Made by a program: the position numbers and the translations under genes | The notes under the pieces: model-generated | Told to the model about the DNA's origin: nothing | The model's input: the letters and a program-made list of their open reading frames with translations, nothing else | The model's database searches: none | Assembly: GCA_017442305.1 (NCBI GenBank) | Contig: JAFRZY010000006.1 | Coordinates: forward strand, 41,538-105,537 | Origin: Bacilli bacterium | GTDB taxonomy: Bacteria > Bacillota_I > Bacilli_A > RF39 > UBA660 | Direction of reading: 5' to 3' | DNA: 64,000 nucleotides | Shown here: positions 7,210-17,139 of the stretch, piece by piece | Position numbering within the stretch: the stretch's first letter is position 1 | Layout of the letters: the number at the start of each line of letters is the position of its first letter

Positions 7210-7473
7210 ATGGTGATTTTGATGGACTTAGATAAATTAATTAATAACGCAATTAATGACAATAGTTTAGTAAAAATAAATAGCAATATTTATTTAACTA
7301 AATATCAAATAGCAATACTAGATAGATTTCATATTGAATATAATAATTGTAGTGATATTAAAGAAATTTTATTTTTAATTGATGAATATTTGGAAAGTGA
7401 ATATGAAGAAGAATTAGATGAACTTGCCAAAAATTTACAGGAATTTAGTTACTATAACTTTACACATAAATAA
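7210..7473 (+). CDS. hypothetical protein (87 aa)
   Basis: ORF only. Confidence 0.3.
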   Translation: MVILMDLDKLINNAINDNSLVKINSNIYLTKYQIAILDRFHIEYNNCSDIKEILFLIDEYLESEYEEELDELAKNLQEFSYYNFTHK

Positions 7474-10359: not shown

Positions 10360-11070
10360 TTAAATACTGTCTTTTAATTGTTTTTTGATTTTTTTTACTT
10401 TCTTTCGTAATTCTTTTTCCGCATTTTTAATTTTAACTTGCAAATCAGGGAAAGCATTATGCAAACGTTTAACAAGAATTGATTTTTCTAATAATATTTC
10501 ATGCACTTTTTCACTTATTTGTTCAGTACTATCTTTAGCAACTGTTATTATGGTATTTTTGAAAGTGTATATGATTTGAAAGGAGATAATATTATCAATT
10601 ATAAAAATTAAAAATAAAATAATTGTGATTAAATATAAATTATTAAAAGATATTTTATTAATTAAAGATAACAAATAAGGATTAACGATATAAATAATAA
10701 CTATGCCTAAGATACCAAACGCTAACATGTATTCTAGGCACACACGACCGTTAATGTTAACTTTTCGGTCAGAATAGTCCCACCAACGAGCTTTAAATAG
10801 TTTTTCCATAATATAACTAGTTGCATATTCTAATCCTGAACATATAATTAAAGACATAAAGAACAATATAATAGGATTTTTAGAAAAGTTTTGTAAACAA
10901 ATTGTTATAAGAATGCACCCTATTCCATAAATTGGACAATAGGGACCTATTAAAAATCCACGGTTTATAAATCTTTTATTTCTAATTAATCCAATACATA
11001 CTTCCATTAGCCAGCCTATAAAAGAATATAGCAAAAATAACAAGAAATAAACACAAAACAAATTCATCAT
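10360..11070 (-). CDS. polytopic membrane protein, CmpB/DUF1113-like
   Basis: FLLYSFIGWLMEV and GPYCPIYG motifs characteristic of PF06541-type membrane proteins. Confidence 0.4.
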   Translation of the reverse strand: MMNLFCVYFLLFLLYSFIGWLMEVCIGLIRNKRFINRGFLIGPYCPIYGIGCILITICLQNFSKNPIILFFMSLIICSGLEYATSYIMEKLFKARWWDYSDRKVNINGRVCLEYMLAFGILGIVIIYIVNPYLLSLINKISFNNLYLITIILFLIFIIDNIISFQIIYTFKNTIITVAKDSTEQISEKVHEILLEKSILVKRLHNAFPDLQVKIKNAEKELRKKVKKIKKQLKDSI

Positions 11071-11163
11071 ATCACCTACATAGAGTAATTATAGACTCTA
11101 CTAATAGTGTTGTCAATTTAAGAATATTTTATCACCTCTTTCCTTTTTCAATATATCTTATGC

Positions 11164-11198
11164 AAAAAAAAGACAAGCTATCATTATGCTTGTCTATA
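11164..11198 (-). terminator. rho-independent terminator of the TasA-like gene
   Basis: Hairpin AGACAAGC...GCTTGTCT followed by a T-tract on the minus strand. Confidence 0.6.
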
Positions 11199-11200
11199 AT

Positions 11201-13090
11201 TTATTCCATTACTATTTCGTAAGGTGTATTTGTATCTATTCGACCATCTCCAGTAAATTTAACGTCTGCTTTTAAGTTAATTACAGGACGAACTTTACGA
11301 CTATCCCCGATTGTTGCATCATAATTTGAAATAGAACCATTTGCAGAAACATAATATACATATAACCCATCATCAAAATCACCTACATCAAGAAAGTAGC
11401 TAGGAGTGGATGTCCAAAACGCTTCGTTACTATATAAATAATGTGTTGCATTGGAAACTACTCCGCCAGCCATTAGTACTTCATCAGCAGTTAATAATCC
11501 TATAGGTTTATCTAATAGACCATTCCCTTTCCCTTCACTTTTTGTATATCTATCGCTCTTATTTGTACATATTAATTTTGGGGCTCTGTTTCGATAAATT
11601 CTAGTATATGGATTAAAGTATACTTCACTCCATCCACTTGAACTAGGATCGGTTATTTCATTGTAATGTTCATCCCAATATCGCCCGATTGATATTTCAC
11701 GGTCATTACAGAATATTCCATCTGCTATATATTTGCCATATGTTTCCTCCAAATTATCTTCGTACCATTTATCTACTACTCCTTTGATTATACTATCCAC
11801 TTGTATTCCGTTACCATCATCATATGTATATCCGACATATTTAGAATTATAATATCCAGTGTTATAAATCGCATCTGCGATTGTCGCTGTATGTGCTACA
11901 CCATTTGCTACAGGCGCTGTTCCATCATAAACAAGCCGGATTGTACCATCGCCATTAATTCTTACAATTCGCCAATACATTGGCATTTCCTCGACATATG
12001 TTACATCGTTTACCGTACTTTCTGATGCATAACTCCCAAATTTTACGTAATTATTGGTTGGCGCTCCTCTAAAATAATATGATATGCCTAAGTCGTCTTG
12101 GGCTTTATATAAACCAGCATCACTTGCAGTCGTGCCTTCACTAAATCCATTGCTTCCTTTTATAGTTTTTGCTGTTACATAATTCCCACTTGTTCCAAAA
12201 TTTGTTACTTCATATATAGTTTGACTTTCATATGTTGAACTGACGTTTTTTATTGTGTATTTTCCACATGTTTTCGTTCCATTTCTACATTCTTCCAATG
12301 TTGCTTGTGTTAGTGTCCCTGATAATGTATAATATCCGATTTCTTTATCAAATTTATATGTTGTTCCATACCAATAACTGTTTGATGTTCCGACACTTGT
12401 TGATGCTGCTGTTATCGTTGAGGCATCTCCTTCTGTCCATTCTGCACTTAAACTTGTTATGGCATCTGCTCCTCCATAGTTAGAAAGTATATCATATGCT
12501 AATGTGCCTTCTTTATATGGATTAAATATTCCCTGACCTATTGTTACACTGATTTTACTTCTAAATGTTTTATTTTGTTCACTGATTGGGGCATTTGCAT
12601 CTATCCAGATGCGTAATTCATATGTTACAGCATCATCTTCTGTTTCGTCTGATGCGCCTGCTAATGTGCCATATGCAAGTTTATTTGATTCATATGCTTC
12701 ACTTATTGTTGGCTCTGCATTTCCTTCAGCAGTTAGTAGTTTTATTTCTTCGTTTAACGCTACTTTAATTGCGCTTGCTTTAATTGCGTTAGTACTATCT
12801 CCTATACTTTCCAAATTTACTTGATAATCAACAGATGTACTACAGTTATTTGTTACTGTAAATTCGTATGGCGTTAGTTTCATTCCTTCGGTATCACTTA
12901 ACGGAAATTGATCAATTAATTCAATATCATTCTTTTCACCACTTAATGATATATCTAAACATCCTGATGAGATTACATTTTGATTTGTTTGAGTCTTTGT
13001 TACTAACCAGTATGCATATGTTACTCCGATTATTACTAGGAGTACTGCTACTATACTTATTACAGTGATTACTGTTTTTTTATTCTTCAT
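11201..13090 (-). CDS. large secreted protein with TasA/camelysin-type N-terminal signal region and a conserved C-terminal domain of unknown function (paralog of 62925-64000)
   Basis: N-terminus KK-hydrophobic-GVTYAYW...SSGCLDISLS parallels the B. subtilis TasA GGGTWAAF...ASGTLDLS SipW-type signal region. C-terminal ~300 aa (YYFRG...WRIVRINGDGTIRLVYDGT...GIFCNDREI...LICTNKSDRYT...GLLTADE...RPVINLK...PYEIV) is shared with the ORF at the window end. Confidence 0.6.
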   Translation of the reverse strand: MKNKKTVITVISIVAVLLVIIGVTYAYWLVTKTQTNQNVISSGCLDISLSGEKNDIELIDQFPLSDTEGMKLTPYEFTVTNNCSTSVDYQVNLESIGDSTNAIKASAIKVALNEEIKLLTAEGNAEPTISEAYESNKLAYGTLAGASDETEDDAVTYELRIWIDANAPISEQNKTFRSKISVTIGQGIFNPYKEGTLAYDILSNYGGADAITSLSAEWTEGDASTITAASTSVGTSNSYWYGTTYKFDKEIGYYTLSGTLTQATLEECRNGTKTCGKYTIKNVSSTYESQTIYEVTNFGTSGNYVTAKTIKGSNGFSEGTTASDAGLYKAQDDLGISYYFRGAPTNNYVKFGSYASESTVNDVTYVEEMPMYWRIVRINGDGTIRLVYDGTAPVANGVAHTATIADAIYNTGYYNSKYVGYTYDDGNGIQVDSIIKGVVDKWYEDNLEETYGKYIADGIFCNDREISIGRYWDEHYNEITDPSSSGWSEVYFNPYTRIYRNRAPKLICTNKSDRYTKSEGKGNGLLDKPIGLLTADEVLMAGGVVSNATHYLYSNEAFWTSTPSYFLDVGDFDDGLYVYYVSANGSISNYDATIGDSRKVRPVINLKADVKFTGDGRIDTNTPYEIVME

Positions 13091-13149
13091 ACCTATCCGT
13101 CCTTCGTAAAATATATCATAGTTCTATTGTCATATTTTGTTACATTTTA

Positions 13150-13178
13150 ATAATATCAATTTAACATATCACTGTCAA
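13150..13178 (-). promoter_or_regulatory. sigma-A-type promoter P1 of the TasA-like gene (TTGACA-17-TATTAT)
   Basis: Minus-strand -35 TTGACA (plus 13173-13178), 17-nt spacer, -10 TATTAT (plus 13150-13155). Leader ~55 nt to ATG at 13090. Confidence 0.5.
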
Positions 13179-13186
13179 TGTGATAT
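13166..13186. promoter_or_regulatory. palindromic candidate operator ATATCAC-N7-GTGATAT overlapping the P1 -35
   Basis: Perfect 7-bp inverted repeat arms at 13166-13172 and 13180-13186. The spacer contains the -35 TTGACA. Confidence 0.4.
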
Positions 13187-13219
13187 CATCATTATGTCGT
13201 CTATCTATTTTACAAGGTA

Positions 13220-13247
13220 AGTATAATATACCCCCCCCGGCTGTCAA
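13220..13247 (-). promoter_or_regulatory. candidate promoter P2 with G8 homopolymer in the spacer (TTGACA-16-TATACT)
   Basis: Minus-strand -35 TTGACA (plus 13242-13247). Spacer GCC-G8-TATAT contains a C8/G8 run (13231-13238) that is exceptional in this AT-rich DNA. -10 TATACT (plus 13220-13225). Confidence 0.4.
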
Positions 13248-13258
13248 CTGTGGATAAC

Positions 13259-13283
13259 AAAAAAAGAACTATTTCTAGTTCTT
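13259..13283 (-). terminator. rho-independent terminator downstream of tRNA-Asn
   Basis: Hairpin AGAACTAG-AAA-TAGTTCT plus T5 on the minus strand. Confidence 0.6.
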
Positions 13284-13294
13284 TAGTTTTCTAA

Positions 13295-13370
13295 TGGCGC
13301 CTGATGCAGGACTCGAACCTGCGACCTAACGGTTAACAGTCGTGCGCTCTACCGACTGAGCTAATCAGGC
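13295..13370 (-). tRNA. tRNA-Asn (anticodon GTT), CCA encoded
   Basis: Acceptor GCCTGAT/ATCAGGC; D-arm GCTC-AGTCGGTA-GAGC; anticodon loop CTGTTAA; T-arm GCAGGTTCGAGTCCTGC. Anticodon stem imperfect (CACGA/CCGTT). Very similar to Firmicute tRNA-Asn. Upstream minus-strand promoter TTGACA-18-TATACT at ~13391-13420. Confidence 0.7.
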
Positions 13371-13454
13371 AAATTTCTGTGTACTCATAAAGTATATAAT
13401 AAATCATATTATTTTGTCAACTAAAATTTACCAAAAATAGTAAGAAAAAGTATC

Positions 13455-13886
13455 CTAGAGATACTTTTTCAATTCATCTAAGTTATGTTGTTCTGTTGCA
13501 AGTAGTTTTTTTGCTAAAGATACAATTTCTTCATCAGCATCATCATAGTGATTTATTTTTTCTGTTATTTCGATTATGCCTTTATTACTTCCTTCGATCA
13601 TCATTTTAGCAATAGCGTTATTTTCGCCTTTTTTAGACATCATCATCATTTCAGTCATCATATAAGAAGTTATTTTAGTTATCTTACCTAATTCTTTTTC
13701 TTCTTTACCATACTTTTTATAAATTTCTTTTGCTTCATTTAAAATAGTATCATATTCTTCTTTTTGTTCTTCCATTAAATTGGCTAATGAAGCATTATCT
13801 ACTCTATCAACTATTTGATTAATACCATTTACACCCATTTCTGCATTTTGATAAATATAGTCTAAAAATTCTATATTTTTATTCAT
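13455..13886 (-). CDS. hypothetical helical protein (143 aa)
   Basis: ORF with Met-rich helical segment TSYMMTEMMMMSKK. No confident family. Palindromic terminator at 13427-13452. Confidence 0.45.
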   Translation of the reverse strand: MNKNIEFLDYIYQNAEMGVNGINQIVDRVDNASLANLMEEQKEEYDTILNEAKEIYKKYGKEEKELGKITKITSYMMTEMMMMSKKGENNAIAKMMIEGSNKGIIEITEKINHYDDADEEIVSLAKKLLATEQHNLDELKKYL

Positions 13887-13926
13887 AAAAAATCACCCAT
13901 TAATATTATGAGTGATTTTTTTGTTT

Positions 13927-15561
13927 TTATACCTCTTGTACTACCGCAATTATCATTGGTTTACATTCAGTTTCTTGATATAAATATCTACTTAATTCTT
14001 CTCTAATTTCTACCTTGATATTATTATAATCTACATAAGTTGGAGTAATATTTCTTTCTATAATTACTTCACATATTTTTTTGATTTCTGCAATCATTTC
14101 TGATGAATCTTTAATATAAATAAAACCTCTAGTAGTAACTTCTGGACCTACTAATAATACTTTATCTTTTTTACTTACTGTTGCGCTTATTAAAACAATA
14201 CCATTTTCACTTAACATTTCACGATCTTTAATAACTAGTTCTCCTACATCATCACTACTTTTACCATCAATTAAAATATCATTAACTTTAATGTGTTCGA
14301 AATTGTCAACATATTCACCATTTTCAATTGTTACTACATCCCCATTTTGTTTTAAGAAGATGTTTTCTGGTTTCATTCCTAGTGATGTTGCCAAATTAGC
14401 ATTGCCTACTAAATAACGATATTCTCCTTTTATTGGCATATAGTATTTAGGATTCATAAGCTTTAACATTAGCATTAAGTCTTCACTTGATGCATGATGT
14501 AAAATAGATTTATCTTTTGGTAATGAAATAATATTACAGCCATACATAGCTAAATCATTTTCAATTTTAACTAAAGCTTTTTCTGTACTATCATATCTTG
14601 GTTCCGCAAATACTACCGAATCAGTTGGTTTTAATTTTATGAATTTATCATATCCATTAATAATTTTGTTCATTGTTGAATATGGATTTGCTTTATCATC
14701 ACATACAAGTAAAATACTATCTTTATCATCAATATTAGATAAATCTCCTAAAATGTCATCATTAAAATGTAAGTAACCTTCTTTTTTGCCAAAACTTACT
14801 ACATTCTGAAGTTTTTTACCCATAGTTATTACTTTACGATGTGTATTTTCTGCTCCATTAAATATATCTTGGATAGTATATAAATGCGTAGGTAATACCA
14901 TTATAATTAGTCTATTTTCTACTCGATTAATAACATCTTTAAAAAATGAAGTTAATCGATGATTTGGTGATGTATGGCCAATATGTTCAGAAAAAACAGA
15001 TTCACTTAATAAACAAAGCACTCCTTGTTTTCCAACATACGCAATTTTTCCCAAATCCATATCATAGGCGCCATTCATAGACGGATCAATAATAAAGTCT
15101 CCAGTATAACAAATTGCTCCGTCTTTAGTATTTAAAACATACATAACAGAATCTGGACAACTATGTGATACAGTTATTGGAAAAATACTTGTCTCACCAA
15201 AGCTAATTTTTTTATGCGGTTTTACATCAATTATTGAACTTTCATTTACGCCTTCTTCAACCAAAACATATTTTGTAAATTTCGTAGCGTAAATCTTAAC
15301 TTCTGGAATATCTTTTAAAAGATCTACTACTCCGCCCATATTTTCAAAATGACCATGAGTTAAAAATACTCCTTTAATTCGATTTTTATTTTTTATTAGA
15401 TAATCAAAATCTGGTATTACGTAATCAATTCCATAAAGGTTGCCACTTGCATACTTTAAACCACAATCAAAAACAAATAGTGATTCATCTACTTCAACTA
15501 TATAGGTGTTTTTGCCATTTTCATCTAATCCACCCAAACTAAAAATTTTAATTTTACTCAT
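13927..15561 (-). CDS. rnj: RNase J-family metallo-beta-lactamase/beta-CASP protein with degenerate catalytic motifs (RNase J2-like)
   Basis: Collinear with B. subtilis RNase J1 over the full length (IFSLGGLDENGKN..., CLLSES, YTGDFIID, PIKGEYRY, C-terminal domain). Motif II reads HGHFENMGG instead of HGHEDHIGG. Beta-CASP motif C reads PIKGE instead of PIHGE. Confidence 0.85.
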   Translation of the reverse strand: MSKIKIFSLGGLDENGKNTYIVEVDESLFVFDCGLKYASGNLYGIDYVIPDFDYLIKNKNRIKGVFLTHGHFENMGGVVDLLKDIPEVKIYATKFTKYVLVEEGVNESSIIDVKPHKKISFGETSIFPITVSHSCPDSVMYVLNTKDGAICYTGDFIIDPSMNGAYDMDLGKIAYVGKQGVLCLLSESVFSEHIGHTSPNHRLTSFFKDVINRVENRLIIMVLPTHLYTIQDIFNGAENTHRKVITMGKKLQNVVSFGKKEGYLHFNDDILGDLSNIDDKDSILLVCDDKANPYSTMNKIINGYDKFIKLKPTDSVVFAEPRYDSTEKALVKIENDLAMYGCNIISLPKDKSILHHASSEDLMLMLKLMNPKYYMPIKGEYRYLVGNANLATSLGMKPENIFLKQNGDVVTIENGEYVDNFEHIKVNDILIDGKSSDDVGELVIKDREMLSENGIVLISATVSKKDKVLLVGPEVTTRGFIYIKDSSEMIAEIKKICEVIIERNITPTYVDYNNIKVEIREELSRYLYQETECKPMIIAVVQEV

Positions 15562-16470: not shown

Positions 16471-16869
16471 TTAGCCAATTTTATTCTTAATTAAATCTGC
16501 GCCTCTTTTAGGATCATCTAATAAAATATCATATACAAATTTATTTTTCTTTAACTCATCTAAAAACAATAATTCTTCATTTGTTAAAGTCCTATAGTTT
16601 GTTTCATGATTTTCTACAACTTTAATTAAATTATCAGTTCCAAGTAAATAATCAGCACTTACTCCAAATAAATGCATTAAATCTATTATAGTTTCTAAGG
16701 CTGGATTTCTTGTACCGTTTTCATAACAACAAATTGAAGATTTACTTACTCCTAAAATTTCTCCTAATTCAGTTTGACTAAGATTCTTTGCTTTTCTTAA
16801 TTCCTTTAATCTTTTACCATTTATCATAAGCATCACCAACAAAATAAGTATATCTTTTATTATTTGCAA
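16471..16869 (-). CDS. XRE-family HTH transcriptional regulator
   Basis: HTH LSQTELGEILGVSKSSICCYENG. True start probably at the internal Met (MINGKRLKELR). C-terminal extension after the HTH. Confidence 0.7.
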   Translation of the reverse strand: MQIIKDILILLVMLMINGKRLKELRKAKNLSQTELGEILGVSKSSICCYENGTRNPALETIIDLMHLFGVSADYLLGTDNLIKVVENHETNYRTLTNEELLFLDELKKNKFVYDILLDDPKRGADLIKNKIG

Positions 16870-16938
16870 AACGTCGCAATTCTACTCTTGGTAAATTTTA
16901 CCGTTGTTTTTAATGTTTACTTTATGTATAATTAAATT

Positions 16939-17139
16939 GTGATGATTATGAACAAATTAAAAGAATTAAGAATTAAGAATGGTTATACAATTGCGAAAAT
17001 AGCAAAATTAATTGGATTATCTCCCACTTATTATTGGCAATTAGAAAATAAACAAAGACGGCTATATTACGAAATAGCCATTAAAATAGCTAAAGTTTTT
17101 TCCTTAAAACCAGATGATGTTTTTTATGATGATTTATAA
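16939..17139 (+). CDS. small XRE-family HTH protein (Cro/SinR-like)
   Basis: 66 aa; HTH YTIAKIAKLIGLSPTYYWQLENKQR. Divergent from the other XRE gene across a 69-bp intergenic region. Confidence 0.65.
   Translation: MMIMNKLKELRIKNGYTIAKIAKLIGLSPTYYWQLENKQRRLYYEIAIKIAKVFSLKPDDVFYDDL

Follow-up and report, generated by a model that had tools for sequence, protein, structure and literature searches.

A length-variable poly-G tract in a family-wide promoter cassette of putative surface-protein genes from an uncultured gut Bacilli bacterium

The DNA analysed here is a 64-kb stretch (hereafter the window) of contig JAFRZY010000006.1, from a metagenome-assembled genome (MAG) named 'Bacilli bacterium' in NCBI (locus tags IJN03_). 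A gene for a protein of 629 amino acids (aa), MBQ6687180.1 (IJN03_01495), lies on its minus strand at 11201-13090, and the conserved N-terminus of the homologues confirmed its start at the ATG at 13090. Two promoter-like elements, P2 and P1, precede this gene, with P1 nearer to it. This study concerns P2, whose spacer contains a run of eight G, and the family of paralogous genes that carry the same element.

On the minus strand, directly downstream of a tRNA gene, the sequence of P2 was ttatccacag-TTGACA-gcc-GGGGGGGG-tatat-TATACT (13220..13257), which scored 11/12 in a consensus scan. The -35 hexamer TTGACA (13247-13242) was the consensus, and the -10 hexamer TATACT (13225-13220) matched the consensus at 5/6 positions and is the variant also used by the promoter of the tRNA-Asn gene (13396-13391). 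The spacer of 16 nucleotides (nt) consisted of gcc, the G8 tract (13238-13231; C8 on the plus strand) and tatat, half of it (8/16 nt) being G. P2 had been proposed in a preliminary description of this DNA as a sigma-A-like promoter, and direct reading of the sequence confirmed its elements and position, including the point that one additional G makes the spacer 17 nt long; G7, G8, and G9 correspond to spacings of 15, 16, and 17 nt, respectively. The rarity attributed to the tract was also borne out. The C8 at 13231-13238 was the sole G/C run longer than 5 nt in the window, which has a GC content of 27.6% and for which about 0.03 G/C runs of 8 would be expected from base composition.

Five paralogs were looked up by exact protein, which led to contigs from the same ruminant-gut samples. 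The motif TTGACA-nnn-G8/9-TATAT-TATACT was found upstream of all of the distinct paralog loci examined in the organism (10/10), and each of the 10 cassettes was followed by a family member (hmmsearch, E <= 1e-109). The window gene is thus one of at least 10 paralogs with the same poly-G cassette, a point missed by the preliminary description, and a homopolymer of about 7 nt or more lies between recognisable -35 and -10 hexamers at the window locus, as it does throughout the 10 paralog loci. The 10 cassettes were invariant in the two hexamers, in the TATAT, and in having an unbroken G run; they differed in the trinucleotide that links the -35 to the tract (gcc, ggc, gga, aat, gaa, and agc). The tract was G8 at nine loci and G9 at one, designated P0003. 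At seven of the 10 loci the ATG was located 45-49 nt from the tract start, which leaves the cassette as their only possible promoter. Throughout about 122 kb of non-redundant sequence of the organism, every G/C run of at least 6 nt was inside such a cassette. An exact-pattern scan for the cassette in a collection of metagenome contigs that does not include this species gave 0 matches. Furthermore, the first 35 residues were near-identical among paralogs that were otherwise 55-72% identical; a homogenised 5' module of this kind is typical of variable surface-protein families.

The length of the tract was compared among independent assemblies encoding the identical 629-aa protein or neighbouring proteins; these are consensus sequences, and the comparison is one between samples. 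Among five assemblies in all, the window tract was G7 in one (L005), G8 in three (L001/L003 and L004), and G9 in one (L002), and apart from the tract these assemblies matched the window over 3-8 kb with 0-2 differences each. Only four single-base indels were found in about 133 kb of pairwise comparison, two of which were in this one 8-nt tract, corresponding to a more than 1000-fold enrichment (P about 3e-7 for this tract and about 1e-5 for any tract). The variation of the tract between samples was therefore far above that of the flanking DNA, in a comparison in which one assembly may carry indel errors. A comparison of this kind had been suggested in the preliminary description as a test of phase variation, and it revealed the expected G7/G8/G9 differences among near-identical populations. 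At a second locus, which belongs to a related species and encodes an identical 625-aa protein, the tract was G8 in three metagenomes and G9 in the fourth. The assemblies that differed at the window locus gave concordant lengths at every other tract, that is, G8 everywhere and G9 at P0003 in both samples. Further alleles of this locus were sought through the neighbouring RNase J and CmpB-like proteins, which brought up the same three or four assemblies only.

Many metagenome contigs (L089, L118, L066, L190, L094, L189, and L097) ended at a G run or within 60 nt of one; for L118, L089, and L066, the distances were 0, 2, and 7 nt, respectively. These ends could reflect either repeat collapse of the shared cassette or heterogeneity of the tract.

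Upstream G runs were also counted across species using one-genome-per-species loci. A G run of at least 9 nt within 250 nt upstream was found for 7/85 family genes versus 1/130 other open reading frames (ORFs) (Fisher P = 0.007). The run lengths were bimodal (<=5 or >=9), and the G9-G10 runs upstream of family genes in other species had non-homologous flanks. L016 and L119 carried TTGACA-18-TATACT with G9 or G10 in the spacer, 60 nt from the ATG, and L150, a sheep-rumen contig, showed the exact architecture of the window, TTGACG-gaa-G8-tatgt-TATTAT. In L142 (1179-1188; also in L143 and L164), a G10 tract was located among the codons for the signal anchor of a family member (MKRKVIILSTALLIVVGGG followed by YLK...). 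With G10 the ORF stops after 19 codons, and with G9 it would encode an in-frame protein of 405 aa; the out-of-frame state was present in all three metagenome assemblies. Such an intragenic tract could act only by frameshift. Taken together, the excess of upstream G runs, the promoters of L016, L119, and L150, and the intragenic G10 argue that long G runs without interruption are maintained by selection in the 5' control region of the family.

Some further arrangements of these tracts were observed. An identical 625-aa protein was preceded by two different cassettes in L189/L186, TTGACG-aat-G8-ttata... versus TTGACG-gaa-G8-agg-tatgt..., which suggests that promoter modules have been exchanged between paralogs by recombination or gene conversion. 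A G7 tract was found 7 nt upstream of an ATG, in the position of a ribosome-binding site, in L147/L149 (2875-2881), where the gene is downstream of a family member. A G10 tract was also present beside a transposase-like ORF in L083 (4785-4794).

P1, the second promoter of the window gene, had been described as TTGACA, a 17-nt spacer, and TATTAT, and was found as such. Its -35 was at 13178-13173 and its -10 at 13155-13150, and the module (TTGACA-17-TGa-TATTAT; 13150..13178, minus strand) scored 11/12 with an extended -10 TG, the spacer ending in TGa, and carried no homopolymer tract. The minus strand of this stretch reads gatg-ATATCAC-attgaca-GTGATAT-gttaaattga-TATTAT. The P1 module was conserved in three paralogs, being kept at L093:5966 and L095:1364 in addition to the window gene. 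In two other species (L191 and L104), the module TTGACAG(T/C)GATA...AAATTGATA...ATTAAAAT(G/A)TAA, which has no G tract, was the sole promoter of family genes. These results indicate that P1 is a genuine and older promoter module, in agreement with its earlier assignment as a promoter. Because it is located between P2 and the gene, P1 should blunt the on/off effect of the tract at the window locus unless it is repressed.

The -35 of P1 is located in the loop of a perfect inverted repeat, ATATCAC-N7-GTGATAT (13166..13186), which thus overlaps a core promoter element. The repeat was present where the preliminary description had reported it, as a likely repressor operator. The window contained 242 perfect inverted repeats with 7-bp arms and 3-12-nt loops, 78 of which had at least two G/C per arm, and the palindrome was accordingly no rarer than expected by chance. 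A search of the window for a second copy with up to two mismatches gave only a poor match at 7338 and none near the XRE genes (16471-17139). With neither a further copy in the window nor an excess over chance, the palindrome was rejected as a regulon motif. Three long-leader paralogs of this organism retained it, with arms of 6-7 bp, and were the only loci to do so; L191 and L104 kept the P1 module but not the left arm of the palindrome, and L104 had a direct repeat instead. The operator proposal did not hold up in these comparisons; an operator is possible, and the retention in the three paralogs is what speaks for it. A role of the palindrome as a transcription terminator was rejected, since the RNA hairpin (-6.9 kcal/mol) was not significant (z -1.3) and no U tract followed it.

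According to the cassette table and the alignment, the 5' leader downstream of P2 (13091..13219, minus strand) exceeded the usual length of about 40 nt by about 95 nt. This long leader, which contains P1 and the palindrome, was shared by three paralogs (the window gene, L093:5966, and L095:1364). The RNA fold of the leader had a z of -2.8, and an Rfam scan of 12500-14000 at E <= 1 returned the tRNA only, indicating that the leader is not a known riboswitch or small RNA. A mini-ORF, ATG ATG ATA TCA CAT TGA (MMISH-stop; 13172-13189, minus strand), overlapped the palindrome and the -35 of P1 and was conserved as MIISH-stop in the two other long leaders; it had no Shine-Dalgarno sequence and is probably meaningless.

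The preliminary description had called the 629-aa protein TasA-like. A search with this protein gave 0 Pfam families at E <= 0.01, a sequence-profile search against PDB gave 0 matches, and the match to the SipW-dependent signal model TIGR04088 (E 0.036, 14.2 bits) was below the cut-off of 19. A model obtained with AlphaFold (AF2) from 37 homologues had a predicted local distance difference test (pLDDT) score of 86 and showed an N-terminal membrane helix (3-32) followed by beta-rich domains, which are predicted ectodomains. Comparison of this model with PDB by Foldseek yielded meaningless whole-chain matches only. Since neither a sequence match to TasA or camelysin nor a TasA-like fold was found in these searches, the label was dropped, and the protein is better described as a predicted membrane-anchored or secreted beta-rich surface protein of unknown function. 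The family proteins had the N-terminal membrane helix and no lipobox.

More than 1000 homologues of the 629-aa protein were present in the database, many of them on the same contigs, and many paralogs of the family occurred per genome; the gene thus belongs to a paralog family whose products are predicted to be surface-exposed. The C-terminal part of a second paralog was found in the window itself (62925..64000, minus strand; tblastn, 54% identity over residues 316-629, 314 aa), its promoter being beyond the window end. Distant relatives (30-41% identity) were abundant in gut MAGs, including those named 'uncultured Bacilli', 'Mycoplasma sp. CAG:776/472/956', and 'uncultured Tenericutes'. The relatives in genome contigs were found by an alignment-based scan, and a scan with a single protein as the query gave none. 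SpoIVA, SpoVIF, and YqfD were encoded beside paralogs, indicating that the organism is a spore former. In L004 (ERZ28654059), a 1-nt deletion at window position 12074 (T4 to T3) split the 629-aa gene into ORFs of 348 aa and 259 aa, which points either to a genuine inactivation of the gene in one population or to an error of assembly.

The gene immediately upstream of P2, which was absent from the preliminary account of the surroundings of P2, encodes tRNA-Asn(GTT) (13295-13370, minus strand; ARAGORN, and 67 bits in Rfam). The promoter scan assigned to it a promoter of its own, TTGACA-18-TATACT (13420-13391, minus strand), and it was followed by a putative terminator (13256..13284, minus strand) comprising a hairpin with a 9-bp stem (13263-13284, -8.4 kcal/mol) and then U7. 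With a tRNA gene that has its own promoter and terminator directly upstream, P2 would open a new transcription unit, and the predicted terminator insulates it from upstream transcription. Within the tRNA gene, position 13340 was A in the window and in Logan contig L006, giving an A.C mismatch at the anticodon-stem pair 31-39, and G in all other assemblies, giving a G-C pair. A 12/12 consensus promoter, TTGACA-17-TATAAT (11088-11116, minus strand), was located upstream of a gene for a CmpB-like membrane protein (10360-11070). The neighbours of the 629-aa gene that were examined encode this CmpB-like protein, an AAA ATPase, RNase J, and a DUF2383 protein. Elsewhere, a difference in the copy number of a 99-nt tandem repeat was observed between L098 (19260-19630) and L099, in a 358/325-aa ORF without a Pfam match.

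As a probable explanation of these findings, we propose that G8 is the variable part of the spacer in a sigma-A-type cassette, TTGACA-nnn-G(n)-TATAT-TATACT, which serves a multigene family of surface proteins and would allow slipped-strand volume control. In this mechanism, slipped-strand mispairing at replication would gain or drop one G and thereby shift the -35/-10 spacing among a poor 15 nt (G7), a sub-optimal 16 nt (G8), and an optimal 17 nt (G9). RNA polymerase would use the two hexamers, the tract length would affect transcription, and the promoter strength of each paralog could thus go up or down independently and heritably. If such switching occurs often and in both directions inside a population, the outcome would be contingency-locus or 'volume-control' phase variation leading to surface diversity. 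At the window locus, the tract would probably modulate rather than fully silence expression owing to P1 downstream, unless P1 is repressed. Slipped-strand control of the family appears well supported by comparison, namely by the architecture of the promoter, the conservation of the cassette across the family, the confinement of G runs to it, the length polymorphism between populations, and the intragenic poly-G of a relative. From the preliminary description, P2 stood up to the comparison and P1 did so as a promoter, and neither the operator nor the TasA label was sustained.

Several observations weigh against slipped-strand control. P1, which is near-consensus with an extended TG and lies 70 nt downstream of P2, could make P2 redundant at this locus. 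All of the cassette tracts were poly-G on the sense strand and never poly-C, and almost all of them, the intragenic one included, were directly followed by TAT; a pure spacing model leaves both features unexplained. The modal G8 gives a sub-optimal spacing of 16 nt, which is likewise left unexplained. Of 21 cross-sample comparisons at eight loci, the 18 at the seven other loci were unchanged, so that switching cannot be called rampant in the consensus sequences. The assembly with G7 (ERZ28019354) had a 1-nt deletion (T3 to T2) that splits serS at about 9148 of L100, which means that some of its indel calls may be errors. Finally, sites scoring at least 11/12 numbered 8 in the window as compared with 7.1 +/- 2.5 in shuffled sequences, not above chance. 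Alternatively, P1 could be the working promoter here and the poly-G cassette a redundant duplicate, the G7/G8/G9 differences then reflecting relaxed constraint on a mutable tract. The 11/12 score of P1 with its extended -10, its occurrence alone before family genes in L191 and L104, and the fact that the most tract-variable locus is one of the three with both promoters are in keeping with this. However, the other two tandem-promoter loci did not vary, the sole-promoter locus in the related species varied as well (G8 versus G9), and the hexamers of P2 are fully intact at the window locus, so that we regard redundancy of the cassette as unlikely.

In another alternative, the uninterrupted G run would be a fixed functional promoter element, such as a contact for an alternative sigma factor (a sigma-B-like -10, GGGTAT) or for a regulator, and the differences in length would be neutral noise or errors of sequencing or assembly. 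The tracts are always G on the sense strand, nearly every tract forms GGGTAT, L028 and L033 contain GTTTGT-N12/13-GGGTAT, G8 was found at nine of the ten loci in all samples, and unrelated 1-nt indels occur in the same assemblies. Nevertheless, the hexamers that the window cassette carries 12-15 nt upstream of GGGTAT are acagtt, cacagt, ccacag, and tccaca, none of which resembles GTTTAA, and a sigma-B promoter (GTTTAA-N12-15-GGGTAT) was rejected for this cassette because of the absence of a -35 match. The tract length also ranged from 8 to 10 across species and paralogs, the intragenic G10 of L142 works only by frameshift, and assembly noise would hardly account for indels enriched at the tract more than 1000-fold while lengths agreed at about 17-18 other tract comparisons. 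A fixed element is, in our estimation, rather improbable. That chance alone produced these features (promoter-like hexamers, G run, and palindrome) in AT-rich intergenic DNA is highly improbable. Sites of 11/12 or better are as frequent as in shuffled sequences and inverted repeats with 7-bp arms are common; among the hexamers, the palindrome, and the tract, statistics alone single out only the tract. Nonetheless, four of the eight sites are grouped within 11088-13420 of the minus strand, where each closely precedes a gene or the tRNA. The cassette with invariant hexamers and tract upstream of 10 paralogs, the base-composition expectation for G/C runs of 8, and the conservation of the P1 module across species refute the chance explanation for P2 and P1, and it is live for the palindrome only. 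With these alternatives weighed, the tract is most likely a mutational expression dial, comparable with those of Neisseria, Treponema, and Mycoplasma.

Phase variation by simple-sequence repeats is textbook knowledge for mucosal pathogens. In Mycoplasma hyorhinis, the Vlp surface proteins have conserved 5' regions (promoter and signal) and divergent bodies, with a homopolymer in each promoter spacer. The present family would resemble Vlp in having a homopolymer per gene in the promoter spacer and conserved 5' ends, an arrangement that permits combinatorial expression. It differs in that the tract of Vlp is poly-A and the proteins are lipoproteins, whereas poly-G and an N-terminal membrane helix without a lipobox are found here, and in that some relatives here carry the tract inside the coding region. 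The work of Rosengarten and Wise is cited for Mycoplasma in PMC11868660.

In the cases of porA of N. meningitidis and tp0126 of T. pallidum, a poly-G tract between the -35 and the -10 sets the promoter strength, which is best at 17 nt (PMC7864442). The likeness lies in a G tract between sigma-70-type hexamers of a surface-protein gene, and G9 would give the 17 nt here. These two examples come from Gram-negative or spirochaete pathogens, whereas the present organism is a low-GC, spore-forming gut commensal of Gram-positive lineage; moreover, a single cassette is common to at least 10 paralogs here. The tpr family of T. pallidum (tprE, G, J, F, I, and L) is under the control of promoter poly-G tracts of about 7-11 nt, whose length varies within and between isolates, and eight G's are a common permissive state (PMC7864442). 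Like tpr, the present genes form a multigene family for putative surface proteins, several of them having a promoter poly-G of their own; in contrast, the tpr tract is located just upstream of the transcription start site and not between clear -35 and -10 hexamers, and the proteins are unrelated. Campylobacter jejuni is a further low-GC species, in which long G/C runs are reported to be absent except in a set of surface-related genes, where they are both intragenic and intergenic (PMC8355987). The present organism likewise combines a low GC content with such a confinement of its long G/C runs. The two differ in that the tracts of C. jejuni are mostly intragenic and in unrelated genes, whereas one duplicated promoter cassette in a single family is found here.

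The literature searched contained no paper on this family or on simple-sequence-repeat switches in RF39-like or uncultured gut Bacilli. The mechanism itself is classical; the instance, a poly-G multigene family of commensal gut Bacilli with promoter and intragenic versions, was not found in that literature. To our knowledge, such phase variation is hardly documented in commensal gut Firmicutes, the literature on which is dominated by invertible promoters.

More tentatively, the family may form a combinatorial surface-variation system in this lineage of uncultured, spore-forming, low-GC gut Bacilli, whose relatives include 'Bacilli bacterium', 'Mycoplasma sp. CAG:776/472/956', and 'uncultured Tenericutes'. 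Dozens of paralogous, membrane-anchored proteins with homogenised 5' ends would each be controlled by a poly-G of their own, either in the promoter spacer or in the signal-anchor codons, with most of them low at G8 and one or a few optimal at G9. Such a system might, by an analogy that we draw with some reserve, be the commensal Firmicute counterpart of Mycoplasma Vlp, Treponema Tpr, and Neisseria Opa.

Expression of the family, which has more than 1000 database relatives, many copies in each genome, and no Pfam domain, thus seems to be coupled to hypermutable poly-G tracts in an uncultured lineage that is widespread in the gut of ruminants and humans. If this is true, the assemblies and gene calls of these MAGs will break or frameshift at the tracts, and the signature TTGACA-N3-Gn-TATATTATACT could be counted in metagenomic reads in order to track switching in vivo. 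The proteins would then be the main variable surface antigens of the organism, or the targets of phage or host interaction.

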